Positions 2,662 through 62,792 of a DNA stretch of 64,000 nt are shown in pieces (within the stretch, counting starts at the first letter, position 1; every line of letters begins with the position of its first letter). Origin of the DNA: Parcubacteria group bacterium Gr01-1014_8 (GTDB lineage: Bacteria; Patescibacteriota; Minisyncoccia; Phycocordibacterales; UBA2100); contig VMGC01000001.1 of the NCBI GenBank assembly GCA_007376385.1, forward strand, positions 192,001-256,000, read 5' to 3'. A model generated the notes under the pieces. That model searched no databases and was not told the DNA's origin. It worked only from the letters and a program-made list of their open reading frames with translations. The translations under genes were made by a program, and so were the position numbers.

Positions 2662-3219
2662 ATGAATAAACAGTGGCTCACGCTTGGCATCGCGCTTGGC
2701 ATGCCCCTCCTCCTTATCGCCGTCGTAGCCGGCTCTATCAAGATATCCGAAATGCGCGTGAGCCCTGCGTATGACGTGCTATATGCAACTGGCTATGGCT
2801 ACGCCGGCAAGTACTACTATGTCCAGGGAACTCATATTTCTTCTGACATTGTCGATGAGAGCGGCCAAATGATAAAAAAAGGGCAGTCGGCTACGAATGA
2901 CTACTCGTATACGAATCAGCAAGAGTCCGTGAATCAAACTCGATTCTATCGCTATGATCCGGTCACGGATTCATCATCGTCCGTAGGAGGCTACGCCGAC
3001 GCGCGAAAGCTGGATATAATCAGTATTGATAAATCGCCAGATGGGTATCGTGTCATAAGGGGTACTGATAGCGGCGATGCGTTCTTCTTTCCCTTTTTCT
3101 ATGACGGCGGCCGTAATACGACCGGCTTCGTTATAGAAGGCGAGAACGGGCGCAAGAATATCAGGCTCACCGGCGATGACTATTACAGGACTGATATAAT
3201 CGGATGGATAGAGAAATAG
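2662..3219 (+). CDS. hypothetical exported protein (N-terminal signal/TM anchor)
   Basis: 185 aa ORF with N-terminal hydrophobic segment LTLGIALGMPLLLIAVVAG. No recognisable motif. Confidence 0.5.
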   Translation: MNKQWLTLGIALGMPLLLIAVVAGSIKISEMRVSPAYDVLYATGYGYAGKYYYVQGTHISSDIVDESGQMIKKGQSATNDYSYTNQQESVNQTRFYRYDPVTDSSSSVGGYADARKLDIISIDKSPDGYRVIRGTDSGDAFFFPFFYDGGRNTTGFVIEGENGRKNIRLTGDDYYRTDIIGWIEK

Positions 3220-3220
3220 C

Positions 3221-4201
3221 ATGGACAAACAACAGATACTTGACCTCATCAAGACAAAGCTTGCGTCAGGCGAGTTGACGCAGCAGGACTTGAAAAATCT
3301 GTCGAGCGGGACACCAGTTCACTCGCAAGCGGGCGTCGCGGTCATTTCGCGTCCTATTTCTCCTGAAGGAGCACATGTAAATATCTCCAAGATGCTTTAT
3401 TACATTGGCGGCCTCATTGTACTCATTGGGGTCGGCGTCTTTGTGTCACAATTCTGGGACGATTTTGGCTCAGAGATACGCGTTCTGATTTCACTCGGCG
3501 GTGCCGTCATTGCGTACGGTACCGGACTCGTGTTATCGAAAACAGATGAAAAGAGCGAGATTGCATCTGCGTTTCATCTTCTTGGCGGAGTATTGTTTCC
3601 GTTTGGCGCGATTACGCTTCTGTATGAAATGGGGATAGAGGCAGAATGGGGAACGTACGCATTGCTCTTCGGCGCACTGACGTTCCTGTATGTAATGACG
3701 ATGTTGATAGTCACGTATCCGCTCGTCACGTTCTTTGCAATAGCAAATGCGACGGCCGCGCTATTCGCACTGACACAGTTTGTATTTCAAGACAACATAA
3801 TCTTCGATTTCTACTATTACTTTGCAATCGTGATGGGAGCGAGTTATTTATACCTTGGTACGCAATTCATAGGCACACGAAACGAACAGATATGTCGGCT
3901 GCTTCTCCTCATCGGCTCTGCGTGGTTTCTTGGTGGCGCATTCATGCTCTACGACTCGCTTATCGGATGGGCGCTTCTATATCCATTTCTGATCGCGGGC
4001 ACCATGGCGCTCAGTATCTACGTTAAGCGGATGTCAGTGCTTCTCATGTCTACCGTGGCCATTATGTCGTACGTCGCATACATAACTGGTAAATATTTTG
4101 CCGACAGTGTCGGTTGGCCGCTCGCGTTGATTGTGATAGGGTTTCTGTTTATCGCGACGGGTTATTTCAGTTACTATCTGCATCAAAAGTATTTTAAATA
4201 A
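3221..4201 (+). CDS. polytopic membrane protein (hypothetical, ~8 TM)
   Basis: 326 aa, start overlaps previous stop (TAGCATG). Many hydrophobic helices. Confidence 0.55.
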   Translation: MDKQQILDLIKTKLASGELTQQDLKNLSSGTPVHSQAGVAVISRPISPEGAHVNISKMLYYIGGLIVLIGVGVFVSQFWDDFGSEIRVLISLGGAVIAYGTGLVLSKTDEKSEIASAFHLLGGVLFPFGAITLLYEMGIEAEWGTYALLFGALTFLYVMTMLIVTYPLVTFFAIANATAALFALTQFVFQDNIIFDFYYYFAIVMGASYLYLGTQFIGTRNEQICRLLLLIGSAWFLGGAFMLYDSLIGWALLYPFLIAGTMALSIYVKRMSVLLMSTVAIMSYVAYITGKYFADSVGWPLALIVIGFLFIATGYFSYYLHQKYFK

Positions 4202-10132: not shown

Positions 10133-11110
10133 CGTGCCAAATACGATAGTCCTTTGACAACTGAAGAACGACACAATTCTTGCTCGTAAGAGCAGGAGAA
10201 AAAGAAAGAATAAGAAATTTTCTGAAAAGAAAATTTCTTTTCGCGCCGTCGCTCGCGGATCATGAGAATAAATTCTCGCGATACCGCTCGCTCGGCGCGA
10301 TCAACAACATTGATTCGGCTATTGTCTTTGGCCGGATCAGTGCAGGAAAAAATGTATTTTTGCGCAACCACTTTTCACAACCACAAGGTTGTAGAAAAGT
10401 GCAGTCCTGTAATAGGGAAAGCAAAAATCAAAAACAATCCGCCTTCGCACACGTTGTGTGCTATGGCGGGACAAAGAAAGTCCCGACACGCCAAAAGGTG
10501 TGACGGGCGCAATGCTTGTCCGTCTTGTAGCGGACAAGCAAAGTAATAAACCAATAACGCGGTTCTCAAATTTCCAAACGGGAATTCTGAGAAAGGGCGT
10601 GCGGCGGATGCCTTGACAGAAGAAGGCGATGAAGGACGCAGTTCGGCGGCGATACGCTTCGGGGAGGTGCCAAGCAACCTTCGATCCGGAGATTTCCGAA
10701 TGGGGAAACCCCATAGAGCAACCCTCTATGACTCATGCTCTAAACAGCATAGAGAGCAGACCTTGGGAAGTGAAACATCTCAGTACCAAGAGGAAAAGAG
10801 ACCAATAGGTATTCCCTTAGTAGCGGCGAGCGAAACGGGAAAAGCACAAACTCAGCCACAAAATCGAAGCGCGATTTATTTCGCGAATCGATTTTGGGGA
10901 TGGGGGTTATAAGGCTACAGCGCTAGCAATAGGTAGAGTAAAAAAATGCTTAGTTAGAGGAAGCGCCTGGGAAGGCGCGCAACACAGGGTAATAGCCCCG
11001 TACTCGAAAACGAAGCATCTCTATGGCTGTAGTTCTTGAGTAACTCGAGACATGAATAGCTCGGGTGAATTTGCCGGGACTAACCGGTAATGCTACATAC
11101 TTCTTCTGAT

Positions 11111-11153
<43 letters not shown>

Positions 11154-12660
11154 GGTGAGGGGAGTGAAATAGACCTGAAACCGCATGCCTACAAGGAGTC
11201 GGAGCGGGCACCACAGTGCTCTTGAAATTTTTTGCAGAATTTTTGCAAAAGATCTTTTCGGGTGCAGTGTGGTGTCCGTCACGGCGTGCCTATTGAAGAA
11301 TGAGCCAACGAGTTAATGCATACAGCTGGCTAAGCCCTTTTCGGGTGGAGCCGTAGCGAAAGCGAGTGTGAATAGCGCGACTATAGTTGTATGTATTAGA
11401 CCCGAAGCCAGGTGAGCTACCCATGAGCAGGCTGAAGTTTATAGAAATATAGATGGAGGGCCGAACCCGTAGATTGTGCAACATCTTGGGATGACTTGTG
11501 GGTTGGAGTGAAAAGCTTATCGAACCTGGTAATAGCTGGTTCTCTCCGAAAGAGCTTTCGGGCTCGCGTCATGGATTACATATGGGGGTAGAGCACTGGA
11601 AGAAGCGGATAGGCCGAAAGGCCACTGCCTCTATCAAACTCCGAATACCATATGCGTACCGTGGCAGTTAGACGATGGGGGCGAAGCTCCATTCGTCAAA
11701 AGGGAAACAGCCCAGACCGCCAGTTAAGGTCCCTAAATCTATGCTCAGTGCATTTCCAAGGAGGTGAAATTTCACAGACAGTGAGGATGTTGGCTTAGAA
11801 GCAGCCACCATTCAAAGAAAGCGTAACAGCTCACTCACTCAGAGATTTCGCGCCACAAATGATCGGGGCTTAAGCATAGTACCGAAACTGCGGATTCAGT
11901 ACGTCTTCGGATGTACTGTCTGGTAGGAGAGCGTTCTCTGTGCGATGAAGGTAAAGGGGTGACCCATGCTGGAGCGCAGGGAAGTGAAAATGTTGGCACG
12001 AGTAACCGCAAGGCAGGTGAGATTCCTGCCCGCCGAAAGAACAAGGTTTCCTTCGCAATGGAGATCAACGAAGGGTTAGTCGGTCCTAAGCCAATGGCGA
12101 ATGCCGCAGGCGATGGATTCATGGTTAATATTCCATGACTCGGAATTGGTGCGATGGAGTGACGGAGTGTTGTACCTCAAGCATATTATGGATTTATGTT
12201 CAGGCCGTGAGGATGCTTTTCAGGAAAATCCGGAGAGCACAGTCCAAGCGGAGTGGAAAAGTGGAGGCCTCGGCCGAAACTGATTTGAGGGAGCACGCTT
12301 CCAAGAAAAACTTCTAAGCTTATAACCAATGACGAACCGTACCGCAAACCGACACAGGTGTTCTGGTCGAATAGACTAAGGCGAACGGGTGAGAGATGCT
12401 CAAGGAACTCGGCAAAAAAGTGGCCGTACGTTAGCAATAAGGCCTGCCCAATACAGTGATGTATGGGGCCGCAGATAATTATTCCCAGGCGACTGTTTAC
12501 CAAAAACACAGCTCCCTGCAAACTCGTAAGAGGAAGTATAGGGGGTGATGCCTGACCAATGCCGGAAGGTCAAGTGTGGTCGGTCTCATATAGCAATATA
12601 TGTTGCTGGCACTACATAAGCCCCGGTCAATGTCGGCGATAACTATAATCGTCCTAAGGT

Positions 12661-13360
12661 TTCCCGCTTAAGAAATTGAGCGGGGAAGGACTGGGACGAT
12701 CATAGAATCGAATAAACAGCGAAAGAAAATACCAAAGCTGCCTCTCTGTGCAGTAATGCACAAGTGGTCCTAGAAACATGGCTATATGCTGGAAACCCTA
12801 TGGTATAATTATTCCATAGATGAGTAATCAGCAGGAAAGGCCAGAGATGAAAGGGTGGATCGTCGGTTTTACCGACGGCGAAGGATGCTTTTCAATAAGC
12901 ATGTTTCGCAACAAAACCACCAAGTTTGGTTGGCAAGTATTCCCAGAGTTTGTAATAACTCAGGGAAAGAAAAGTTTGCCAGCACTCGAAACTTTCCAAA
13001 ACTTCTTTAAGTGCGGAAAGATATACGAGAACGCTAGGTACGATAATCATCGTGAATATCTGTATCGATACTGTGTACGATCAATTTCGGATTTGCGGGA
13101 GAAAATAATCCCGTTTTTTCGAAAAAACAAATTGTATACAGCCAAACAAAAAGATTTCGAACTGTTTGCAGATGTCATAGAAAAGGTGTATCGAAAAGAA
13201 CATCTTTTAGAATCGGGATTGCGAGCGATAGCGCGCAAGATCGAACAGATGAATCGCAAGAAGAAATCAACATTTCTGGAATCCTCAGAGACTACACGCC
13301 ATGCCCCTAAATCTAAATAAGATCGGGTGAAGATATAGTCCAAAGGTAATAGGAACCTAG
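12661..13360 (+). mobile_element. group I-type intron in 23S at E. coli L1917-equivalent site, carrying a LAGLIDADG homing endonuclease gene
   Basis: Inserted between GGTCCTAAGGT and AGCGAAATTCCT. Contains ORF 12820..13320. Confidence 0.7.
12820..13320 (+). CDS. LAGLIDADG homing endonuclease (intron-encoded)
   Basis: 166 aa; motif GWIVGFTDGEGCFSI near N-terminus. Confidence 0.85.
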   Translation: MSNQQERPEMKGWIVGFTDGEGCFSISMFRNKTTKFGWQVFPEFVITQGKKSLPALETFQNFFKCGKIYENARYDNHREYLYRYCVRSISDLREKIIPFFRKNKLYTAKQKDFELFADVIEKVYRKEHLLESGLRAIARKIEQMNRKKKSTFLESSETTRHAPKSK

Positions 13361-13372
13361 AGCGAAATTCCT

Positions 13373-14142
13373 AGAAGACTGGGACTATCAGTCAAAAACT
13401 ACTGATAGCAAATTCTGCTATATGCTGGAAACTCCGAGTATCCAACAGTACCCTGACGAAATGGAAGGGTAAAAATCTGTTGGTGCGGACAATCAGCAGG
13501 GAAGTCGTAATTGACCCCTCAACGACTACACGCAGAACTCCACGAAGCTCATCAATCCGATGCTGTTTCGGGAGGTGATATAGTCTGAACTGCATGGCGA
13601 CATGCAGAGTTTGGCTCGCGCCAAACCGCTTCAAACAAATTGAAGTCATTATTCTCACTAGAGAATAGTAAGTAACAGAATGTGTCTGGTAACTGGATTG
13701 CCAGTTAGTACAGCGATGTACTACAAAAGATCCGCCTGTCAGCAATGACGGTAGTAATTCGGCTTATAACGGTGGAATCCTACTCGGAGCACTTTAGACG
13801 AGGTGCGTTGATGAAAGGATAATACCGTGGGAAGTCTTGTGAGTTTCGTGGAGGGCAACCTCCGTGCGAGAGCGCCTCGCCCGGTTGAGGGCGGTCGGTC
13901 GGCATTGGTGCTGACTGTCTGATCTGGAGCCTCTGTCCAGGCTCTCGCATCAATCTTCTCATCATGGTGATGGGAACTTCCACGAAACTCGCAATGACCC
14001 CGTAACGACTTAGCGCGAAAGCGCTGGAAGTGTCTCAAAAACACTTAACACGCCGACTCTGCAATGCGCAGAAGAAGATATAGTCTAATGCCCGAAGTAA
14101 TTCGGGGAGAGTGTCATATTGCGCGAAATATGACGATCAAAC
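13373..14142 (+). mobile_element. second intron-like insertion in 23S (L1931-equivalent), no intact ORF
   Basis: A 12-nt exon AGCGAAATTCCT separates it from intron 1; exon resumes near TGAAGTTCAGACGCGCACGAATGG. Only short or antisense ORFs inside. Boundaries approximate. Confidence 0.45.
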
Positions 14143-14700
14143 TCAAATGAAGTTCAGACGCGCACGAATGGTATAACGACTTGGGAACTGTCTCGAGCAT
14201 TTGCCCGGTGAAAATACAAGGGCGGTGAAGATGCCGCCTTCCTGCAGCTAGACGAAAAGACCCCAGAAGCTTTACTGTAATTTGGTATTGAGGATACGAT
14301 TTTTCCGCGTAGCGTAAGTGGGAGGCTTTGAAGCAAGGATCTCGGTTCTTGTGGAGCCGTCAATGCAACACCACTCCTAAAAATTGTATTTTCTAACTTC
14401 CATAGCAAAACTGTGGAAAGACAGTACCTGATGGACAGTTTCGGTGGGGCGCTGTCCTCCTAAAAAGTAACGGAGGAGCCTATTAAGGTCACCTAGGTGC
14501 GAATGGAAACCGTACCGGTAGTGCAATGGCAAAAGGTGGCTTGACTGCGAGTCGTACGTGACAAGCAGGCGCGAAAGCGGAGCATAATGAACCGATGGTT
14601 CGCATTAGATGCGACCAAAGATTAACGGATAAAAGTTACTCTGGGGATAACAGGCTGGTTTCGCCTAAGAGTCCAAATCGACGGCGAAGTTCGGCACCTT

Positions 14701-15552
14701 AACAAATCGGGGTGCGACGTAAGCAATTACGTAGCTTGGCTCACACATGAGACCAAGAACCAACATGTGTGCAGTTCAAATCGTGGCTTATAACGGTGAA
14801 CTCCATGGTATTATAGAACAATCGTTCTATAGTATATGGACAATACCGTGGGAAGTTTAACTCAATTACAGCGATCAATAATTATCGGTAGTCTCTTAGG
14901 TGATGGCTACTTACGGATCGTACCGCGCAGATACAATGCGTTTCTCGAGATCAATCATTCGTATTCACAAAAAGAATATGTTGATTGGACATTCGAGATG
15001 CTCAAATCGATCTGTAGAAGCGGTCCGAAGATGCGAAACGGAAATGGTGTGCGAATTGCATACCGTTTTACGACTCGTCAAATGCCGGAAATCACCGAAT
15101 TGTTCAAAGTGTTTTATGCCAATGGCAAGAAATAAATTTCGAACAATTTAAGATTAGATCCGATAATGCTTGCTGTATGGTTCATGGATGATGGAAGTAG
15201 GTGTAGCGTTGAGAACGTGTACCTTAATACTCAGCAGTTTAATTTCGATGATCAAGAAAAATGCAGGGCAATGCTCATGCGGCTTGGTATCGAAACAACT
15301 CTCAATAAGGACAAGAAGTATTTGAGAGTGAGGATAAAAACATCCTCAATCCCAAAACTTCATAAAATTATCTCACCGCACATCATTCCATCCATGAAAT
15401 ATAAATTGGGTTATAACCCCGTAGAGACTCGCTTCTTCGGAAGCGGAGTTACTGACTCTGTAATGAGCAGTAGCTAACACGCCACCTCCTTTCAATAGAA
15501 AGGATGATGATATAGTCCGATCCTTCCAGTAATGGAAGAAAAAATGACATTG
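14701..15552 (+). mobile_element. third intron-like insertion in 23S (near L2500-equivalent, GGCACCT|CGATGTCGGCTC) with split LAGLIDADG gene
   Basis: Exon resumes at CGATGTCGGCTCATC (~15553). Contains ORFs 14836..15135 and 15166..15477. Confidence 0.7.
14836..15477 (+). pseudogene. double-motif LAGLIDADG homing endonuclease interrupted by an in-frame TAA (two ORFs: 14836..15135 and 15166..15477)
   Basis: First half carries IIGSLLGDGYL; second half carries VWFMDDGS. Spacing fits a single ~210 aa enzyme. Stop codon at 15136-15138. Confidence 0.6.
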
Positions 15553-15786
15553 CGATGTCGGCTCATCTTAGCGCGGGGCTGGAGAAGGTCCCAAGCGTAT
15601 GGCTGTTCGCCATTTAAAAAGGTACGTGAGCTGGGTTCAAACCGTCGTGAGACAGGTTGGTCTTAATCTGCTGTAGGCGTTGATTCTTGAGGAGACTCAT
15701 TTTTAGTACGAGAGGACCGAAATGAACTGACCTCTGGTCTGGGGGCTGTAGTACCAACTGCATCGCCCCGTAGCTATGTCGGGATT

Positions 15787-15819
<33 letters not shown>

Positions 15820-16004
15820 GACTCCAAGATTAGGAATCGTTATAGACTCGTGGGAGATGACCACGTTGATAGGCACCAGGTGGAAGCGCAGTAATGCGTT
15901 GAGCCGAGGTGTACTAATTAGTCGACAGAATTCTCGAAAGGAATTTTGGGAGTCGCGATACTGGTTTATTGCGACGAGCGAGGACGAAGCGAAAATTTAT
16001 TGGC

Positions 16005-16094: not shown

Positions 16095-16260
16095 TCCGAG
16101 CGAAGGCGCAACAAAGGGTTACTACCCTTTATTGCGAAGTAACAAAACGCATTCTTTCTTTCTGTGGTTCGCCGAAGCTCGCACAAGCGAGCGTAGGAGA
16201 CTGCATTGTGTCGTTCTTCGGTTGCCGAAGGCAAAGTTCATTGCAATTGAAGTTTTTGTT

Positions 16261-16363
16261 CTGGTGATTTATCGCTGGGGTCACACCTGTTCTCATTCCG
16301 AACACAGTAGTTAAGCCCAGTTGAGGCGATGGTAGTCGCAAGGCGAGAGTAGCTAGTCGCCAG
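16261..16363 (+). rRNA. rrf: 5S ribosomal RNA
   Basis: ctggtg...CCGAACACAGTAGTTAAGCCC...GAGAGTAGCTAGTCGCCAG with terminal helix pairing. Confidence 0.85.
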
Positions 16364-16379
16364 AACAAAGATTTCAAAG

Positions 16380-47671: not shown

Positions 47672-48340
47672 AGAAGGCTTGAACTTTGACAACTGAATAT
47701 GAAAAATTGTACGCAAAACCAAAAAAGAAATTGGTAAGTAAAATTGTTGCCGGCGCTCGCTCGGAATTGAAAATTTATTTTCATTTCGCTCGCTCGCATG
47801 GGCAATAAGAATTCTTGTTGTTCTCAAGTTAGGAACAATAAGACACACACAAAAGCAAGAAAACAGAAAATACATATTGAGGTTCCAGGAGGATCTCATG
47901 TGTAAGTAAACAGTAATAACGAGACAAAAGATCCCCCAAGGGGACTGCGACTTTCTACGATTCAAATGAATCGTGAAAGTCGGGAGATATACATTCTTTT
48001 GTTTCGTCCATCCTAGAGATATTGAAGCAATTCAAATTCTTGAAAGTGGTGTAAAAACCATTTTTACTTAGAGTTTGATCCTAGCTCAGGGTGAATGCTG
48101 GCGGTATGGATAAGGCATGCAAGTCGAATGGGTTAGACCCATGGCAGACGAGGTAGTAACAGGTAGGTACGTCCCCGGAAGTCGGGCATAACCAGCCGAA
48201 AGGTTGGATAATTCCCGATGGTCTCGCAAGAGTAAAGATTTATCGCTTCCGGAGCGGCCTGCTTTGTATCAGCTTGTTGGTGAGGTAACGGCTCACCAAG
48301 GCTATGACGCATAGGGGACCTGAGAGGGTGACCCCCACCG

Positions 48341-48377
<37 letters not shown>

Positions 48378-48891
48378 TGCAGCCGAGAATATTCGACAAT
48401 GGGCGAAAGCCTGATCGAGCGATACCGCGTGGTGGATGAAGCGCTTCGGCGCGTAAACACCTTTTATGAGGGAAGAAATTTTGACGGTACCTCATGAATA
48501 AGGGGCTCCTAACTCTGTGCCAGCAGGAGCGGTAATACAGAGGCCCCAAGCATTACCCGGAATTACTGGGCGTAAAGGGTGCGTAGGTGGTCATATTAGT
48601 CGCCTGTTAAAACCCACGGCTCAACTGTGGAACCGCGGGCGAAACGGTATGACTAGAGAGAGTGAGAGGTGAATGGAACTCATGGTGTAGGGGTGAAATC
48701 CGTTGATATCATGGGGAACACCGAAAGCGAAGGCAATTCACTGGCACTTTTCTGACACTCAAGCACGAAAGCGTGGGTAGCGAACGGGATTAGATACCCC
48801 GGTAGTCCACGCCCTAAACGATGATCGCTGGATTTGGGGAGTATCGACCCTCTCCGAGTCGAAGCTAACGCGTTAAGCGATCCGCCTGGGT

Positions 48892-48923
<32 letters not shown>

Positions 48924-49386
48924 AGACGGGGGCTTGCACAAGTGGTGGAGCGTGTGGCTCAATTCGTCGCTAAGCGAAGAACCTTACCAGGGCTAGAAAT
49001 CCAGCTGCATACTTTGGGAAACCTTAGTAGCCTTCGAGGGTGCTGGACAGGTGATGCATGGCTGTCGTCAGTTCGTGGTTTGAATCGTTCCCTTCAGTGG
49101 GGTAACGAACGCAACCCTCGTTGCCTGTTATATTTGTCAGGCGAGACTGCCCCCTCACGGGGGAGGAAGGTGAGGATGACGCCAAGTCAGCATGTCCCTC
49201 TGATGTCCTGGGCTGCACACGCGCTACAATCGCCGTTACAACGAGGCGCAACGTCGTAAGACCGAGCAAATCTTTCAAAAGCGGCGCCAGTTCGGATTGA
49301 GGTCTGCAACCCGACCTCATGAAGCCGGAATCACTAGTAATCGCGGGTCAGCCACACCGCGGTGAATACGTTCTCAAGCCTTGTAC

Positions 49387-50231
49387 TCACAATAAAAGCG
49401 CACAGCAGTGTACATATCTATGCGGTTAAAATCCGCACCTCTCTTTCGTACAGAGAGCGTAGCAGAAGGATAGTTGTTATCCGCGAGGATGATAATGGAG
49501 GATCCTAATGCAAAGAGCAGCCATTTCGCACAAAAGCCGACCGACCTGTCAATGGGTGGTGAGGATAGGGAAGGTCCTAGAAAGGCAAGAAAATGGATGC
49601 CTAGAACAGATACGCACATAACCTGTGGAGATCTGACGCTGTTATCCCAAAGATGGGATATGATGAATCTGACGCAGCGTCAGAAGTCAGCTGAGTCATA
49701 GTATTTGCAGATATGCAAAAAAGGACTCACTCAAAGCAAAATCTTAGTCCAGATTATGTTGTTGGACTCGTAGATGGTGAAGGAAGCTTTACTGTCTACG
49801 TAAGAAATCCAGACATAGAGAAAAAAGTCGCTCGAAGAGTGGTTGTAGAGCCAAAATTCTACATAAAACTAATCGAACGCGACAAAGATATTCTCTATGC
49901 ACTTCGAGATTTCTTCGGATGTGGAAGTATTTACTTCCAAAAAGATAATCGTCCGAATCATCAACATTGCTATCGTTACGAGGTCTTCCGGTGGGAAGAA
50001 CTTCAAACGATAATCATTCCGTTCTTCAAGCGGCACGTTCTCAAATTCGCGTCAAAACGGCACGACTTTGAAGTGTTTTGCATGATGATGGAGCTTCTCA
50101 AAAAAGAAGCACATCGAACGGAAAAAGGACTACGAGAGTTGTTTAAGTTGAAACAACGCATGCATTGAGCTCGCGTAGTGCGGGAAATCCGCTCGCTACG
50201 TGGGAACATCAATTCTTAGATTCAAGAAGAT
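49387..50231 (+). mobile_element. intron-like insertion in 16S (after CTTGTAC, ~E. coli 1392) carrying a LAGLIDADG gene
   Basis: Interrupts the universally conserved TTGTACACACCGCCCGTC. Contains ORF 49713..50168. Confidence 0.65.
49713..50168 (+). CDS. LAGLIDADG homing endonuclease (intron-encoded)
   Basis: 151 aa; YVVGLVDGEGSFTVYV motif. Similar architecture to the 12820..13320 protein. Confidence 0.85.
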   Translation: MQKRTHSKQNLSPDYVVGLVDGEGSFTVYVRNPDIEKKVARRVVVEPKFYIKLIERDKDILYALRDFFGCGSIYFQKDNRPNHQHCYRYEVFRWEELQTIIIPFFKRHVLKFASKRHDFEVFCMMMELLKKEAHRTEKGLRELFKLKQRMH

Positions 50232-57033: not shown

Positions 57034-58080
57034 ATGGCAGAACGACTGACCTTGCGAGAAGAATTAGCGCAGCGTCACCCTGTACTTTTAAAGGACTGGT
57101 TACGTAACGAAGGGGTACCAATTGGGGATGATTTTTCATGCGAAATGGAGTTTAATCTTGGACGTCACTCGCTACGCAAGGATGCGCGTCGGTTTAGAGA
57201 GTACTCAAAAGAAGCTGATATTATTTTTTCTGAACGTTTGGACTGGACTCCACTACAAACCGATGTGTATCAGCAGGTAAGTGCGGGAACATTGGATGCT
57301 GTCGGCGCAGGTAAGACAATTACCAGCGACTATTCTAAATTTCAGCAGGGAGAACTAGAACAAATATTTGAAACCGGAGCGTCGATCTACCACCTCGATT
57401 TGCCTCTGGGTGAAGAGTCTGTGGCGTTACAAAAAGATATAATTGATAAAATAATGGAGCACATATTGCTCCACGAACCACCTTTGAGCCTCGAGGAAGC
57501 GCAAAAGACTTTTCTCAACAACCTAGATAAAGATGCGACTTTACACACCGCACGTGAAGAACATGCTGCAGCTGAATTTAGGTCACTTGTTAAAAAAGCG
57601 TTAACAGAACGACCGGAACTGCTAAACCGAAAGCCACTTAGGATTCTTGTGATTTACGGGTTGGCGCATACATCTTTAAAACATCGAATAACCACTACGT
57701 ATCCTGATGTATTGGCGAGACCGTCCACAGAATATAGTACATCGTACCGAGAAGAATATCTTCAGAACAGATTATGGGGCATTGAACCAACAGAGGAGTT
57801 GGAAAAGAAAGTCTTTTTCGAGGCATGGGCAGCTTCGTCTGTACCGAAGCGTTTGTTGTCGGTCTCCCAGGACGCGGCGCGTATTTGGGGGCGTAATGTC
57901 GTAGACGCGTTATCTATACAAGAATGGCAACGCATGTACGGGAGTTGGATGGAAGGAAGTGATAGAGGGGGCGTCACAAAATTCATAAAACATAAGTTAA
58001 AGGAAGCGGGTGTACCTGACTCACACACAGGGGCGATGAAGCTGAAGAAGTGGTATAAACAACAGACTGACAAAAAATGA
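57034..58080 (+). CDS. hypothetical protein
   Basis: 348 aa, coding-like, no motif. Lies between purT and purN. Confidence 0.45.
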   Translation: MAERLTLREELAQRHPVLLKDWLRNEGVPIGDDFSCEMEFNLGRHSLRKDARRFREYSKEADIIFSERLDWTPLQTDVYQQVSAGTLDAVGAGKTITSDYSKFQQGELEQIFETGASIYHLDLPLGEESVALQKDIIDKIMEHILLHEPPLSLEEAQKTFLNNLDKDATLHTAREEHAAAEFRSLVKKALTERPELLNRKPLRILVIYGLAHTSLKHRITTTYPDVLARPSTEYSTSYREEYLQNRLWGIEPTEELEKKVFFEAWAASSVPKRLLSVSQDAARIWGRNVVDALSIQEWQRMYGSWMEGSDRGGVTKFIKHKLKEAGVPDSHTGAMKLKKWYKQQTDKK

Positions 58081-58754
58081 GTAAACCGAAATTATTGATA
58101 TTCGCTTCCGGTACCAAAATCGGAGGAGGTTCGGGCTTCGAGAATTTGGTACAAGCAAGCAGGAGTGGCGCGCTTGGCACGGAAATCGTGGGTGTAGTTT
58201 CGAATCATGAGAACGGAGGGGTACGTGAGCGTGCGGACAGACTCGGAGTGCCATTCATATATTTTGGCGGACCATGGGAAGCAGAGCACTATCAGCGTGT
58301 GGTAAAAGATAGCGGTGCCGAGTGGGTCATGCTCTCTGGCTGGCTGAAATTTGTGAAAGGACTCGATCCGATGCGTACATTCAACATCCATCCCGCGCTC
58401 CTCTCATTCGATCATGGTCGTTTCGGGGGCCCCGGTATGTATGGCCACCATATTCACGAAGCAGTCGCTGAAGCGTTGGAAAAAGGGGAGATAACCAACT
58501 CAGGATGTTCAATGCATTTTACGACCGAAGAATATGACCGCGGACCGATATTTTTCGAATATCGCGTACCGCTCGAAAAAGGAATGACCGCCGAGACAAT
58601 AGCAAAAGTCGTGCAAGCGGCGGAACACGAATGGCAACCCAAGATCACAAACATGGTTGTGCACGAATTAATCCGTTGGGATGGGAAAGATGCAAATACA
58701 CTTGTTGTGCCGAAAGGCTACTCATTTCTTCCGAATCATGACGCCGTCGCATAG
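58077..58754 (+). CDS. purN: phosphoribosylglycinamide formyltransferase (formyl transferase family)
   Basis: 225 aa; NIHPALL motif and GTKIGGGSGF N-terminus. Confidence 0.7.
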   Translation: MSKPKLLIFASGTKIGGGSGFENLVQASRSGALGTEIVGVVSNHENGGVRERADRLGVPFIYFGGPWEAEHYQRVVKDSGAEWVMLSGWLKFVKGLDPMRTFNIHPALLSFDHGRFGGPGMYGHHIHEAVAEALEKGEITNSGCSMHFTTEEYDRGPIFFEYRVPLEKGMTAETIAKVVQAAEHEWQPKITNMVVHELIRWDGKDANTLVVPKGYSFLPNHDAVA

Positions 58755-59821: not shown

Positions 59822-60202
59822 CTATTTTTTCTCGAAGTGACTGGCAACCATTTGGACTATCTCGCTTGGGTCGTGGTCAGCCTTTTGTACGAAAAGTGTA
59901 ATGTTCGCCTCCATTGCATCTGCAAGATTTTCCGCATTTATCGAGTTGGTTAAAATGACAAAGAATGTTTCAGGTGCGGATGCGCGAGTTTCTTTTACAA
60001 GCTCGATACCCGAGCGCTCAGGGAGCATTAGATCGACTATAGCGACGGCAGGAGAATCTTTCTTGATAGCTGTGAGACCTGCTTCGTATGAGATCGCTCC
60101 TTCAACTTCAGCACCCGCATCAGCGAATAATTTTGAGAGTACGTCAATAACACGCGGGTCGTCATCAACTATAAGCACCTTTTTTCCTTTCATTCGAGAC
60201 AT
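59822..60202 (-). CDS. response regulator receiver-domain protein (CheY-like, stand-alone)
   Basis: KKVLIVDDDPRVIDV...VAIVDLMLPERSGIELV. Start ATG overlaps the kinase stop (TAATG). Confidence 0.8.
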   Translation of the reverse strand: MSRMKGKKVLIVDDDPRVIDVLSKLFADAGAEVEGAISYEAGLTAIKKDSPAVAIVDLMLPERSGIELVKETRASAPETFFVILTNSINAENLADAMEANITLFVQKADHDPSEIVQMVASHFEKK

Positions 60203-61569
60203 TATACATTGGCAGGAAGCGTGACAGTGAATGTCGTGCCGTTTGCTTCTGACGAATTGCACGTGATAGTGCCCCTGTGAAAATCAACTATTTTTTTGGA
60301 GATATACAAGCCGAATCCAGTCCCCATCGCGCCTGACTCTTCGGCATTGGTGCCTCGGAATCCCTTGAATATCGAGTCGAGGTCAGTTTTTGAAATACTG
60401 ATGCCGCGATTGTGCACTTGGAACATTCTGGATGTTTGATCGTCTACATAGGAGATTGAGACCACTGAACCGGGGGGAGAATATTTAACTGCATTGGATA
60501 GCAGATTATCGAATACAAGGCGCAGTTTCTCTGCGTCGCCCATAACCATCGCCGACGTGTCCGGCCCGATATCGGACTGAATGGTGATATTTTTGGCTTT
60601 TCCTAAGGAAAGCCCGTCGGCGATAGCACTTCTGAGGACACGGGCAACATTGACCGGCTTGAAATCAGCCCTACGCATGAGACCGTGGTCGGCTGACGTT
60701 GTCAGCAGGAACGTGGAGGTCAAGTCGATGAGCGAACATATGCGGAGGTAAATGTCGTTCAATGTGTCTCGCATTTCTGGTCTCAGCGAGGTGTCCAGCC
60801 TCAGTGTCGAAAGGCTCCATCGCAAAGAAGCGAGCGGTGAGCGCAGTTCGTGCGATGCGACGGCTACGAAGTCTTCTTTCATTTTGACGAGGTCTTGCTC
60901 TCTCTTATTAAAAACGTATAGCATGCTGACGAGCGAGAGCAGTGCGATGGTTGCTAGGAGTACAAGACCCGATTGCAGGTAGAAAACTAAGCGGTGGGTG
61001 TCTGCATTTTGATCAAATCCAATGAGTGCAACTGTTGTTCCGCTGGCATTCACGACAGGTGCCAGGGCAGATATCCAATTGCCCCAGCGGTCTGCGTATA
61101 TTTCTAGGACGAAGGGAACATTGGGGTTCCATCCATTTATCAGAGCCGGAGATGCCTCTACATACTCCTGCCCAGGAGGAGAGTAATCTTCGGACGAAGG
61201 GTCCTCCGAATCGAGCATGAAGTACACGCGGCCATTCCGCATTGCCATCAAGTACGCAAAACGCAGGTCTTTGTTGGCATCCTTTAGTGCGGTGATCTTT
61301 TTCTTCAGCAAGATGTATACGGGGTTGTCGAGGTCTGCTTCAGACAGTGTTAGTTGAGACATCTCCGCAGGCTCAAGAACAGTAGCAACAGACTGCACGC
61401 GCCTCACCAACTGCTCGTAGGTCTGGGTGTTTGTTGTGTGGCCGACATAAAAGAATGCGAGCGCACTTACTGCAAGTATCGCTACGCACGCGACGTAGTA
61501 GAGAATATCCTCTCTCTTCAAGCCCCGCTTGCCGAAAGGCATAGAGGAATTATACGGGACATTTAGCAT
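60202..61569 (-). CDS. sensor histidine kinase
   Basis: 455 aa; N-terminal TM plus extracytoplasmic domain; H-box VASHELRSPLASL; HATPase_c motifs NLLSNAVKYSP, GTGFGLYISKKIV. Confidence 0.85.
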   Translation of the reverse strand: MLNVPYNSSMPFGKRGLKREDILYYVACVAILAVSALAFFYVGHTTNTQTYEQLVRRVQSVATVLEPAEMSQLTLSEADLDNPVYILLKKKITALKDANKDLRFAYLMAMRNGRVYFMLDSEDPSSEDYSPPGQEYVEASPALINGWNPNVPFVLEIYADRWGNWISALAPVVNASGTTVALIGFDQNADTHRLVFYLQSGLVLLATIALLSLVSMLYVFNKREQDLVKMKEDFVAVASHELRSPLASLRWSLSTLRLDTSLRPEMRDTLNDIYLRICSLIDLTSTFLLTTSADHGLMRRADFKPVNVARVLRSAIADGLSLGKAKNITIQSDIGPDTSAMVMGDAEKLRLVFDNLLSNAVKYSPPGSVVSISYVDDQTSRMFQVHNRGISISKTDLDSIFKGFRGTNAEESGAMGTGFGLYISKKIVDFHRGTITCNSSEANGTTFTVTLPANV

Positions 61570-61630
61570 GGAGCTTTTACTGTGTGGATAAATTGGTAGA
61601 CGCTACTAGTCTCAGGATAAAATTGAGAAT

Positions 61631-62386
61631 GTGAAAAGAGGACCGAAACCGAAAGGGCAGGTAAGTACAAATTGGTCATCGGACTTTGCTTACGTCATTG
61701 GATTAATTACTGCCGATGGTTGTCTGCTTAATGATGGCCGACACATTGATTTTACTTCAAAAGATCGAGAGCAAGTTGCAACGTTCAAAAAATGCTTAAA
61801 GCTCAAAGCCAAGATCGGCATCAAACATTCTGGGATCGGAAACGAGTACTACCGCATACAATTTGGCGATGTTTTGTTTTATGCATTTCTTGTTAGCATC
61901 GGCTTATCTCCTGCAAAATCAAAAACAATCTCTCACGTGCTTGTTCCTGATGAATATTTTCTGGATTTTCTCAGAGGTTACTTCGATGGAGATGGCACAA
62001 GTTATTCTTTTTACGATTCAATCTTCCCAAAAAGTTACCGATTCTATATATCGTTTATGTCGGCAAGTCCCGTCTATATTCATTGGCTAAGAAAAAAGAT
62101 AAGTGATTTTTTACACATTCAGGGGCATCTCGACCGCAGTGGTAACAAGCCGTACATTCAACTCAAATTCTCAAAGAAAGAAGCAGTGATACTAGCCAAA
62201 GGTATGTACTATTCTAGCGGCATTCCGTGGTTAACGCGGAAGCATTTGAAGATTCAGCGATCTTTACGCATAATCGAGGCAGGCCGCGGTGGTGAAATTG
62301 GTAAACACGCTGCGTTCAGAACGCAGTTCTCGCAAGGGGTTGGGAGTTCGAGTCTCCCCCGCGGCACATCAAAATTTGCTCATTAA
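61631..62386 (+). CDS. free-standing double-motif LAGLIDADG homing endonuclease whose reading frame runs through tRNA-Leu
   Basis: VIGLITADGCLL (motif 1) and LRGYFDGDGTSY (motif 2). No in-frame stop before the tRNA, so the last ~35 codons overlap the tRNA. Confidence 0.7.
   Translation: MKRGPKPKGQVSTNWSSDFAYVIGLITADGCLLNDGRHIDFTSKDREQVATFKKCLKLKAKIGIKHSGIGNEYYRIQFGDVLFYAFLVSIGLSPAKSKTISHVLVPDEYFLDFLRGYFDGDGTSYSFYDSIFPKSYRFYISFMSASPVYIHWLRKKISDFLHIQGHLDRSGNKPYIQLKFSKKEAVILAKGMYYSSGIPWLTRKHLKIQRSLRIIEAGRGGEIGKHAAFRTQFSQGVGSSSLPRGTSKFAH
62283..62366 (+). tRNA. tRNA-Leu (anticodon CAG), type II with long variable arm
   Basis: Acceptor GCCGCGG/CCGCGGC, D stem GTG/CAC with 11-nt loop, anticodon stem CTGCG/CGCAG with loop TTCAGAA, long variable arm, T arm GGGAG-TTCGAGT-CTCCC. 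Confidence 0.7.
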
Positions 62387-62792
62387 CTGGCGCGGAATTC
62401 CGAGATACACTCTGTTCGCCAGCGGATATTCTCCGAAGATGGCAAAGCCCTGAGGTCTTGGCACTCCCTTTTCTTGTATTGGCAGTTTGTATCCTGAAGG
62501 CGTTCCTGTCATGCCAGCATCTACTACGACGACCGGAGTTACCCCTCCTTTAAATATCACCACCCTCATTTTTTTTGTGATCGCCGCTGACTATCAAAAT
62601 TCTCACCGTAACATCCTCGCCTGCAAGTTGTAGTGGAAAAAGTTTCTCTTTGATGTGCTCAGTATCTGGGTAAACTTGAATTCCGTGTTGCAAAACGTGA
62701 GCGAAAAGTTCCTCAGCCAATTTCCGTCGCTCTTCCTGCGTGCCTTCGGTCGCCGCGACGAAGTCGACTATTTTGAAATACTTTTCGGGCAA
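62369..62792 (-). pseudogene. possible dCTP deaminase/dUTPase-family gene split by a frameshift (ORFs 62550..62792 and 62369..62569)
   Basis: C-terminal piece VVVDAGMTGTPSGYKLPIQEKGVPRPQGFAIFGEYPL loosely resembles Dcd DPGWSG...KLPL.LRPG..IGAL.FEPL. Two overlapping frames. Confidence 0.25.

Follow-up and report, generated by a model that had tools for sequence, protein, structure and literature searches.

A free-standing LAGLIDADG endonuclease gene joined to tRNA-Leu(CAG) in a Parcubacteria genome: a probable intron-less homing cassette and its relatives

How can a LAGLIDADG endonuclease gene come to stand alone between two pieces of tRNA sequence? Bacterial LAGLIDADG genes are usually viewed as passengers of introns or inteins. 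In the stretch of Parcubacteria group bacterium Gr01-1014_8 analysed here (contig VMGC01000001.1, positions 192,001 to 256,000; 64,000 nt, referred to below as the window), such a gene follows a partial tRNA-Leu and its reading frame continues into a complete tRNA-Leu(CAG) gene. A first-pass annotation of the window had read this as an insertion at a duplicated tRNA-Leu that left a 5' tRNA remnant behind. Our comparative analysis bears this out: the remnant recurs at related loci, its anticodon matches that of the downstream tRNA, and alleles lacking the homing endonuclease gene (HEG) exist. The explanation we regard as probable is colonisation of the tRNA-Leu(CAG) locus by a LAGLIDADG homing endonuclease cassette that stands free, without an intron.

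The features of the unit are collected in Table 1. The open reading frame (ORF) has the two LAGLIDADG motifs that had been read from its translation, VIGLITADG and LRGYFDGDG, and it lies outside the rRNA genes, as had also been stated, the large subunit (LSU) gene being at 10579-15938 and the small subunit (SSU) gene at 48063-49422. The tRNA that had been proposed at 62283-62366 was recovered by ARAGORN as a complete tRNA-Leu(CAG) ending at 62367. The frame is open across the entire tRNA, as claimed, and ends at the TAA at 62384-62386. A 34-codon open frame across a tRNA is not itself improbable by chance, and full read-through is limited to a few genomes, that of the window included; the ORFs of the closest relatives end 44 nt inside the tRNA, at a TAG of the anticodon stem that is absent from the window tRNA. 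The whole unit measures about 0.8 kb, and the LAGLIDADG gene is its sole ORF.

Table 1. Positions of the tRNA-Leu(CAG) unit and of other LAGLIDADG reading frames in the window
Feature	Position	Strand	Basis and remarks
Relic A, partial tRNA-Leu(CAG), about tRNA positions 6-38	61582-61617	+	Sequence, family alignment
Candidate promoter of the endonuclease gene	61593-61623	+	Weak, 19-nt spacer; putative function
LAGLIDADG homing endonuclease ORF, 251 aa, GTG start	61631-62386	+	ORF list
tRNA promoter-like site, TTGAAG-17 nt-CATAAT	62246-62274	+	Promoter scan; putative function
tRNA-Leu(CAG), complete, R-type allele (B), acceptor GCCGCGG, D-stem GTG/CAC	62283-62367	+	ARAGORN; Rfam, 60.4 bits (cut-off 29)
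Single-motif LAGLIDADG ORF, 166 aa	12820-13320		
Single-motif LAGLIDADG ORF, 151 aa	49713-50168		

The arrangement recurs well beyond the window. A scan using one genome per species yielded at least 492 loci of the family, of which 80 were retained for locus comparison (individual loci are cited by our handles, such as L002). A tRNA gene follows the endonuclease gene on the same strand at 73 of the 80 related loci, and at 71 of these 73 the ORF stop falls in the interval from -30 to +114 nt relative to the first base of the tRNA; the remaining two, L066 and L068, have early stops about 470 nt upstream of the tRNA. The overlap between ORF and tRNA is a property of the whole family and no accident of the window genome. 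The type of tRNA changes with relatedness, from Leu(CAG) in the closest members to Leu(GAG) in the next, then to Leu with AAG, TAG or TAA anticodons, and finally to tRNA-Asp(GTC) or tRNA-Cys(GCA) in the most distant ones (31-36% identity). Hosts are chiefly Patescibacteria, the candidate phyla radiation (CPR), with a few records labelled Chloroflexi, Omnitrophota or Planctomycetia. One locus, L009 (851-1602), has an endonuclease gene with a normal relic, followed by a tRNA-Leu(CAG) on the opposite strand (1518-1602), apparently a local inversion.

Judged from its relatives, the protein looks like an active nuclease under purifying selection. It matches Pfam LAGLIDADG_3 (PF14528) above the cut-off (E=6e-8), and its motifs supply the two catalytic aspartates, Asp29 from motif 1 and Asp121 from motif 2. 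Asp29 is kept in 81 of 81 relatives and Asp121 in 79 of 79, that is, wherever the motif 2 region exists, and truncated ORFs account for two of the 81 family members. A protein of the Gr01-1014_8 MAG is 100% identical to the window product. Database searches returned 930 homologues, the closest being 60-74% identical and mostly 231 aa long. Nearly all of them terminate in ...RRGGEIGKHASFRS, which is the translated 5' half of tRNA-Leu(CAG).

The AlphaFold2 (AF2) model of the window protein, with a predicted local distance difference test score (pLDDT) of 82, shows two alpha-beta-beta-alpha-beta-beta-alpha halves, and the folded two-domain enzyme is predicted to span residues 1 to about 219, to about position 62287. 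Residues 218-251 come from the tRNA gene, and residues 222-251, with pLDDT below 50, are predicted to be disordered; in the model the tRNA-encoded tail lies outside the folded enzyme. A PDB sequence search with a profile of 24 homologues found a single structure, 2DCH (E=2.5e-8), which is also the best Foldseek match (I-Tsp061I, E=2e-11, template modelling scores 0.59/0.71). I-DmoI, I-SceI, I-OnuI-type enzymes, intein endonuclease domains, maturases and WhiA follow, and the top 50 Foldseek matches all are LAGLIDADG enzymes, inteins, maturases or WhiA. No phage carrier was found: a tblastn search against 50,697 phage records returned only relatives less than 30% identical, annotated as inteins or endonucleases.

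Presence and absence of the gene could be compared at syntenic positions in two clades. In the GAG clade the order is rluA, rplS, relic-HEG-tRNA-Leu(GAG), with tRNA-His further on. Using L19 as the anchor, we found six empty loci (L085-L090), where tRNA-Leu(GAG) begins 70-90 nt beyond rplS and no endonuclease gene is present, alongside the filled rplS loci L015, L016, L018, L091, L094 and L095, the last of which is on the same contig as L016. Filled and empty loci interleave by L19 identity, which is 92% between L015 and L085 (over the matched part) and 89% between L094 and L089. In the CAG clade, where a DHFR-family neighbour of L002 served as the anchor, eight loci (L103-L110) read purN, tRNA-Leu(CAG), DHFR, with no endonuclease gene by tblastn and with 13 nt from the purN stop to the start of the tRNA.

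The tRNA-like fragment upstream of the window gene, which we call relic A, exists as the first-pass annotation had said, only not at 61596-61632: that placement is about 12 nt too far to the right, and the string quoted for it, gtggataaattggtagacgct, sits at 61584-61604. The relic comprises the D-arm, the 5' strand of the anticodon stem and the anticodon loop, with CAG at 61613-61615. It is without an acceptor stem and without the 3' half, and it has one extra base (T61604) between tRNA positions 25 and 26. Aligned with its own downstream tRNA the fragment gave a modest similarity (local-alignment z=3.2), and across loci such pairwise comparisons mostly fell below z=3. When run on 61572-61619 alone, the Rfam tRNA model did not detect the relic, which is too altered for a general tRNA model, having an added base and no acceptor strand. 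The signal became clear only after the relics were aligned with one another and with the tRNAs of empty sites. The 25-nt consensus AATTGGTAKACGCTANNNNNYTSAG, built from 29 loci that include the window itself, has one exact match in the window (61591-61615, no mismatches) and none in 100 shuffled sequences.

A relic is retained in about 29-40 Leu loci, spanning tRNA positions of about 14-40. In the 29 aligned Leu relics the core ATTGGTAKACGC (ATTGGTA[T/G]ACGC) and the bases T33, A35 and G36 are almost invariant; the variable parts are the five-base strand of the anticodon stem, the acceptor region and the flank on the downstream side. Every relic has 9 nt between D-stem and anticodon where the tRNA has 8, the additional base, usually T, standing at 25/26. 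The relic anticodon agrees with that of the downstream tRNA as CAG/CAG (11 loci plus L009), GAG/GAG (about 20 loci) and TAG/TAG (L062 and L069). A few relics (L013, L023, L028 and L050) keep the whole 5' half including the acceptor strand. On these alignments the relic is too conserved to be a passive footprint; the conservation of its D-arm could reflect a homology arm, a promoter part or an auto-repression site. For the last of these, with the relic as an operator, I-TevI provides a model of auto-repression.

A further piece of tRNA was seen directly 5' of the relic at L002 (2918-2940) and L004 (about 217-237). This sequence, TGGGTGCGGGGAGACTCGA, is the reverse complement of the last 19 or so nucleotides of a tRNA-Leu(CAG) of the type found at empty loci (S-type, below), and the displaced tRNA of these two loci would thus survive as two pieces, one of them inverted.

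The tRNA genes of empty loci and those linked to the endonuclease gene are of two types, which we call S-type and R-type. In the CAG empties L105-L110 the S-type tRNA has the acceptor GGGTGCG and the D-arm GGCGCAATTGGTAGACGC; the gene of L108, GGGTGCGTGGCGCAATTGGTAGACGCGCACGGTTCAGAACCGTG, is an example. The R-type tRNAs linked to the HEG, that of the window included, have the acceptor GCCGNGG and the D-arm GGTGAAATTGGYAAACAC, and an R-type tRNA stands behind 12 of 13 closely related endonuclease genes. In Kaiserbacteria both the relic and the inverted fragment match the S-type tRNA of the empties, and the linked tRNA has the acceptor GCCGCGG. The GAG clade is similar: four GAG empties all read GGCGAAAYTGGTAGACGY-A-CTACC-TTGAGGT, with a D-arm that is the relic's minus the +1 base. 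By sequence, then, the relic is a copy of the allele type of the empty locus and not a decayed copy of the downstream tRNA.

HEG-linked tRNAs have altered D-arms (for example GTG...CAC, GAG...CTC, CTG...CAG and TTG...CAT) in which the changes are compensatory and stem pairing is kept. The tRNAs of L015 and L085 differ at seven positions in the D-arm and seven in the variable arm and at none in the acceptor, anticodon and T arms. Counted over every locus fetched, 10 of 18 tRNA-Leu(NAG) genes without a linked HEG have the core GGTA[GT]ACGC, against 7 of 66 with one (Fisher p=1.5e-4, in a test that ignores phylogenetic non-independence). From this pattern it seems to us an evenly balanced proposition that S-type genes are cut by the enzyme and that R-type genes resist it.

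There are two promoter-like sites, one upstream of the endonuclease gene and one within its 3' end. For the gene itself the candidate in the window would combine a -35-like TTGGTA (61593-61598) in the D-loop of the relic with a -10-like TAAAAT (61618-61623) located 7 nt 5' of the GTG start. In relatives a TATAAT or TATACT box lies 3' of the relic anticodon loop, with the start codon about 8-20 nt further on, and L050, L062 and L069 have a textbook promoter (TTGGCA or ATGGCA, 17 nt, TATAAT). The D-loop TTGGTA was considered as a universal -35 box and rejected, since its distance to the -10 box is not constant (17-23 nt). With such variable spacing, a promoter role is by itself not enough to account for the conservation of the relic.

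The second site, a putative tRNA promoter, lies within the 3' coding end of the endonuclease gene and ends 8 nt 5' of the tRNA. Its hexamers encode the conserved residues L-K and R-I-I, and TTGAAR...CATAAT is kept at the DNA level in the window, L002-L006 and L008, with codons fixed as TTG-AAR (Leu-Lys) and CGC/AGC-ATA-ATY (Arg/Ser-Ile-Ile). A TATAAT-like box 10-20 nt ahead of the tRNA is present in many of the other members, and in empty alleles a tRNA promoter-like box is found about 32 nt upstream, in ordinary intergenic DNA. Given the embedded site, gene and tRNA give the appearance of a single integrated module. RNase P would be expected to cleave transcripts that start at the endonuclease promoter, at the 5' end of the tRNA; when ORF and tRNA overlap, as they do in the window, the stop codon would be lost through this cut, which may limit expression.

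Taken together, the unit consists, in order, of relic A (a disabled piece of an S-type tRNA), the endonuclease gene, the putative embedded tRNA promoter and the R-type tRNA B. We propose that the enzyme recognises about 22-25 bp of S-type DNA from the D-arm to the anticodon loop and cuts there, and that the break is then repaired from a cassette-bearing donor, whereby the endonuclease gene is introduced together with the insensitive R-type tRNA or a part of it. Because the R-type tRNA would be copied in with the gene, the essential tRNA function would never be lost. The 5' part of the old tRNA would stay upstream, made uncleavable by the +1 base at the presumed centre of the site. A carrier allele has two copies of the presumed target stretch, and both are changed where a LAGLIDADG site of about 22 bp would have its centre, the functional tRNA presumably being protected by compensated substitutions or as a different allele. 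The relic may have been co-opted as the promoter region, and possibly the operator, of the endonuclease gene. As the cassette abuts tRNA position +1, the reading frame extends into the tRNA.

Several observations weigh against this model. The assignment of cleavage to S-type and of resistance to R-type genes is an inference and not a biochemical result, the S-type D-arm core is kept in the 7 HEG-linked tRNAs counted above, and exceptions to the pattern include L008, L039 and the HEG-less locus L103, which carries an R-type tRNA; D-arm type is an imperfect predictor and in part follows lineage. A metagenome scan with the histidine kinase that neighbours the window gene returned relatives of 25-44% identity and no empty allele of the window's own lineage. 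A consensus promoter scan made no call for the endonuclease-gene promoter of the window, with its 19-nt spacer. The Asp and Cys members have no relic; they have an ordinary promoter and an upstream terminator. Many of the source genomes are metagenome-assembled genomes (MAGs), and their taxonomic labels and some of the contexts may be wrong.

The +1 base raises a difficulty of its own. Its presence in all relics fits a single origin of a relic that travels with the element; it does not fit a relic freshly made in each recipient, and a travelling relic does not readily fit the covariation of the anticodons. The shared base suggests that the element carries at least the right half of the relic along with it, and the complete, locus-specific acceptor strands of some relics point to the recipient as the source of the left half. 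The two origins could be reconciled if the junction lay near position 25/26.

A different explanation of the unit, which we consider unlikely, is that the gene encodes a domesticated, vertically inherited host factor, either a WhiA-like regulator or an RNA maturase, that is co-expressed with tRNA-Leu and has the relic as its operator or promoter. The protein is certainly well conserved (more than 100 homologues at 60-74% identity), the ORFs are intact with few exceptions, and the gene occupies syntenic positions across divergent CPR lineages. The tRNA promoter embedded in the gene, the conserved relic beside a -10 box and the appearance of WhiA among the fold matches would also suit a regulator. 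However, WhiA is only a fold neighbour. It is without catalytic acidic residues and has a C-terminal helix-turn-helix domain, whereas both catalytic aspartates are invariant here and the 30 C-terminal residues of the window protein are tRNA-encoded and predicted to be disordered, leaving no WhiA-like C-terminal domain in the model. Moreover, genomes with L19 proteins 89-92% identical to each other differ in whether they have the gene, the linked tRNAs have altered target-like sequences, and the family sits at several tRNA genes (five types of Leu, plus Asp and Cys) and extends to MAGs labelled as other phyla. The invariant aspartates, the patchy presence and the range of tRNA genes favour a mobile nuclease over a domesticated regulator. 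The two readings are not exclusive, and autoregulation through the relic would by analogy resemble I-TevI.

It is also conceivable, at a still lower probability, that the gene landed between tandem tRNA-Leu paralogues of which the upstream one decayed. The S/R difference would then be unrelated to cleavage and would reflect ordinary divergence, or divergence selected against recombination between repeats. Loci with another complete tRNA directly 5' of the gene (L024, L045, L048, L058 and L073) are what this would predict, and the R-type tRNA without a gene at L103 and the partial link between D-arm type and lineage agree with it. On the other hand, every empty locus has a single tRNA-Leu and never a tandem pair, and all 29 aligned relics share the same end position and the same +1 base. 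The D-arm is more conserved in the relics than in the real tRNAs, unlike the outcome of neutral decay, and the differences between L015 and L085 are limited to the D-arm and variable arm.

The alternative that the first-pass annotation had offered, a tRNA intron relic in which a HEG-bearing intron once sat in the anticodon loop of tRNA-Leu and the fragment is the 5' exon of a degenerated unit, draws on the end of the relic in or just after the anticodon loop, on the positions of bacterial tRNA group I introns (33/34 to 36/37; PMC13011429) and on the abundance of tRNA and rRNA introns in Patescibacteria, with a group I intron in the LSU rRNA of the window itself, but is very improbable, since a cmscan search of 61300-62600 against Rfam (E<=10) found only the tRNA and no group I or II intron family, the 13 nt from relic to start codon and 0 nt from ORF to tRNA leave no space for a ribozyme, the downstream tRNA is complete (60 bits), the acceptor region and anticodon-stem strand of the relic are unable to pair with the downstream 3' half, and the Asp and Cys members have no exon-like fragment upstream. 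An integrase-type tRNA-targeting element was rejected as well: the unit has no ORF besides the LAGLIDADG gene, and what is repeated is the tRNA's 5' part and not its 3' end.

If the cassette is mobile as we propose, a stronger formulation can be put forward, more tentatively. The unit may be a naturally occurring drive of the 'cleave-and-rescue' kind, directed at an essential tRNA gene: the S-type allele would be destroyed, an inseparable cleavage-proof R-type copy would be carried along, with its promoter in the final codons of the endonuclease gene, and the relic, disabled by the +1 base, would serve as a portable homology arm, as an auto-repression site or as both. Such an element might kill non-carriers or might only copy itself. 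Should this be true, the family would drive replacement and D-arm diversification of Leu, Asp and Cys tRNA genes in CPR bacteria and other phyla, and would offer a natural model for such drives. An arms race with the nuclease is a possible explanation of the unusual variation in CPR tRNA-Leu D-arms. The cassette would also represent a ribozyme-free route by which a selfish nuclease can enter an essential RNA gene, bringing a replacement copy and recycling a piece of the old one as regulatory DNA. The family itself, with at least 492 loci and 930 proteins, is a large free-standing group of bacterial LAGLIDADG enzymes tied to tRNA genes, and it explains an annotation oddity, namely protein C-termini that are made of translated tRNA. 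As compact monomers of about 217 aa with presumed targets of about 22 bp that are conserved across bacteria, its members are candidates for meganuclease engineering.

The surroundings of the unit and of the empty loci yielded additional observations. The window gene has a histidine kinase gene on one side and the tRNA on the other. From purN (58077-58751) to the relic the window has a block of about 2.9 kb, encoding a 378-aa protein, a response regulator and the histidine kinase (60202-61569); in L002 purN directly adjoins the cassette. The start codon of the histidine kinase is 13 nt from the window relic, and the acceptor-stem part of the relic, if any, was thereby removed. Among the CAG empties the S-type tRNA has opposite orientations in L105/L106 and in L108-L110. 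Downstream of the empty tRNA-Leu(GAG) of three species (L088, about 3075-3200; L089, about 3100-3230; L090, about 3105-3260) an inverted, interrupted tRNA copy follows the terminator; read by eye, it consists of the acceptor 3' strand and the T-arm, for example GAGGACTTGAAC, and may represent either a tRNA relic in inverted orientation or some small structured element.

L085 diverges from L086 and L087, with which it shares an identical L19, right after the terminator of tRNA-Leu(GAG), from about 3110. The 3' flank of L085 contains a helix-turn-helix gene and two DNA methylase genes, while L086 and L087 have a second tRNA 3' end and terminator about 200 nt downstream, which suggests that the 3' flank of tRNA-Leu(GAG) is an integration hot spot. 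On the Paceibacterota contig of L095 (520-1925), a diversity-generating retroelement signature (the accessory protein bAvd and an RVT_1 reverse transcriptase) was found immediately 5' of rplS.

In the open-access full-text literature we found no published account of this endonuclease-tRNA arrangement, and several known systems resemble it in part. By analogy, SegB of phage T4 is the closest functional analogue. It is a free-standing GIY-YIG homing endonuclease of the T4 tRNA cluster that recognises DNA of the T-psi-C element (PMC2330249). As here, its gene stands free among tRNA genes and is missing at the homologous locus of relatives. SegB spreads with neighbouring tRNA genes by break repair ('intronless homing'), a mode of spread that for our cassette is a proposal. 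SegB differs in being a GIY-YIG enzyme of a phage, without a tRNA relic, an ORF/tRNA overlap or an embedded tRNA promoter, whereas the hosts of the cassette are cellular CPR bacteria and family members number in the hundreds.

Endonuclease genes in tRNA group I introns share with the cassette the tRNA gene target, a boundary in or near the anticodon loop and Patescibacteria hosts. A 2026 survey of tRNA introns in Patescibacteria described group I introns in Asn and Asp tRNAs with few intron-borne endonuclease genes, those being of the HNH, PD-(D/E)XK and LAGLIDADG (PF03161) types in Asn, fMet and Arg tRNAs, and reported neither the PF14528 family nor tRNA-Leu(NAG) nor the cassette arrangement (PMC13011429). 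Intron-borne genes rely on splicing, while the cassette supplies a second complete tRNA and has no ribozyme. In fungal mitochondria, free-standing LAGLIDADG and GIY-YIG genes accompany partial duplicates of atp6, cox1 and atp9 (PMC7487136). There too the insertion is at an essential gene with a partial duplicate, one copy being functional and the other a remnant; these hosts are protein-coding genes, in contrast to a bacterial tRNA with a conserved 5' remnant that carries a +1 base and a functional copy that is a distinct allele. The closest solved structures, I-Tsp061I (2DCH) and I-DmoI, are likewise two-motif monomers of about 200 aa, but they belong to archaeal rRNA introns and are about 22% identical, the presumed target of the cassette being a tRNA gene.

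LAGLIDADG genes in CPR rRNA insertions have the same host group and superfamily; they are mostly single-domain LAGLIDADG_1 or _2 proteins within rRNA, and a 2024 study found LAGLIDADG_3 only in 16S insertions and made no mention of tRNA (PMC11270868). Two single-motif LAGLIDADG ORFs of the window (Table 1) lie near its rRNA genes. The LSU rRNA gene is 5.4 kb long with about 2.4 kb of insertions, and a group I intron (13363-13607, Rfam 67 bits) lies just downstream of the 166-aa ORF. The 5S rRNA gene (16260-16365) follows the LSU, and the 16S gene is unlinked, 32 kb away, with model positions 1-1533 contained within 1360 nt. No group II introns were reported for complete Patescibacteria genomes (PMC13011429). 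In the window a match to group II intron domains D1-D4 (49639-49726, 42 bits, cut-off 35) is followed by the 151-aa LAGLIDADG ORF.

Two further comparisons concern the principle. Synthetic 'cleave and rescue' drives link a nuclease against an essential gene to a cleavage-insensitive copy of that gene, and tRNA-targeting integrative elements rebuild a complete tRNA and leave a partial repeat. Compared with these the cassette is natural, is without an integrase and has the 5' part of the tRNA as its repeat. The principle is not new in itself; the novelty lies in joining this target class, enzyme family and host group to a conserved disabled target, a linked variant tRNA and an embedded promoter-like site.

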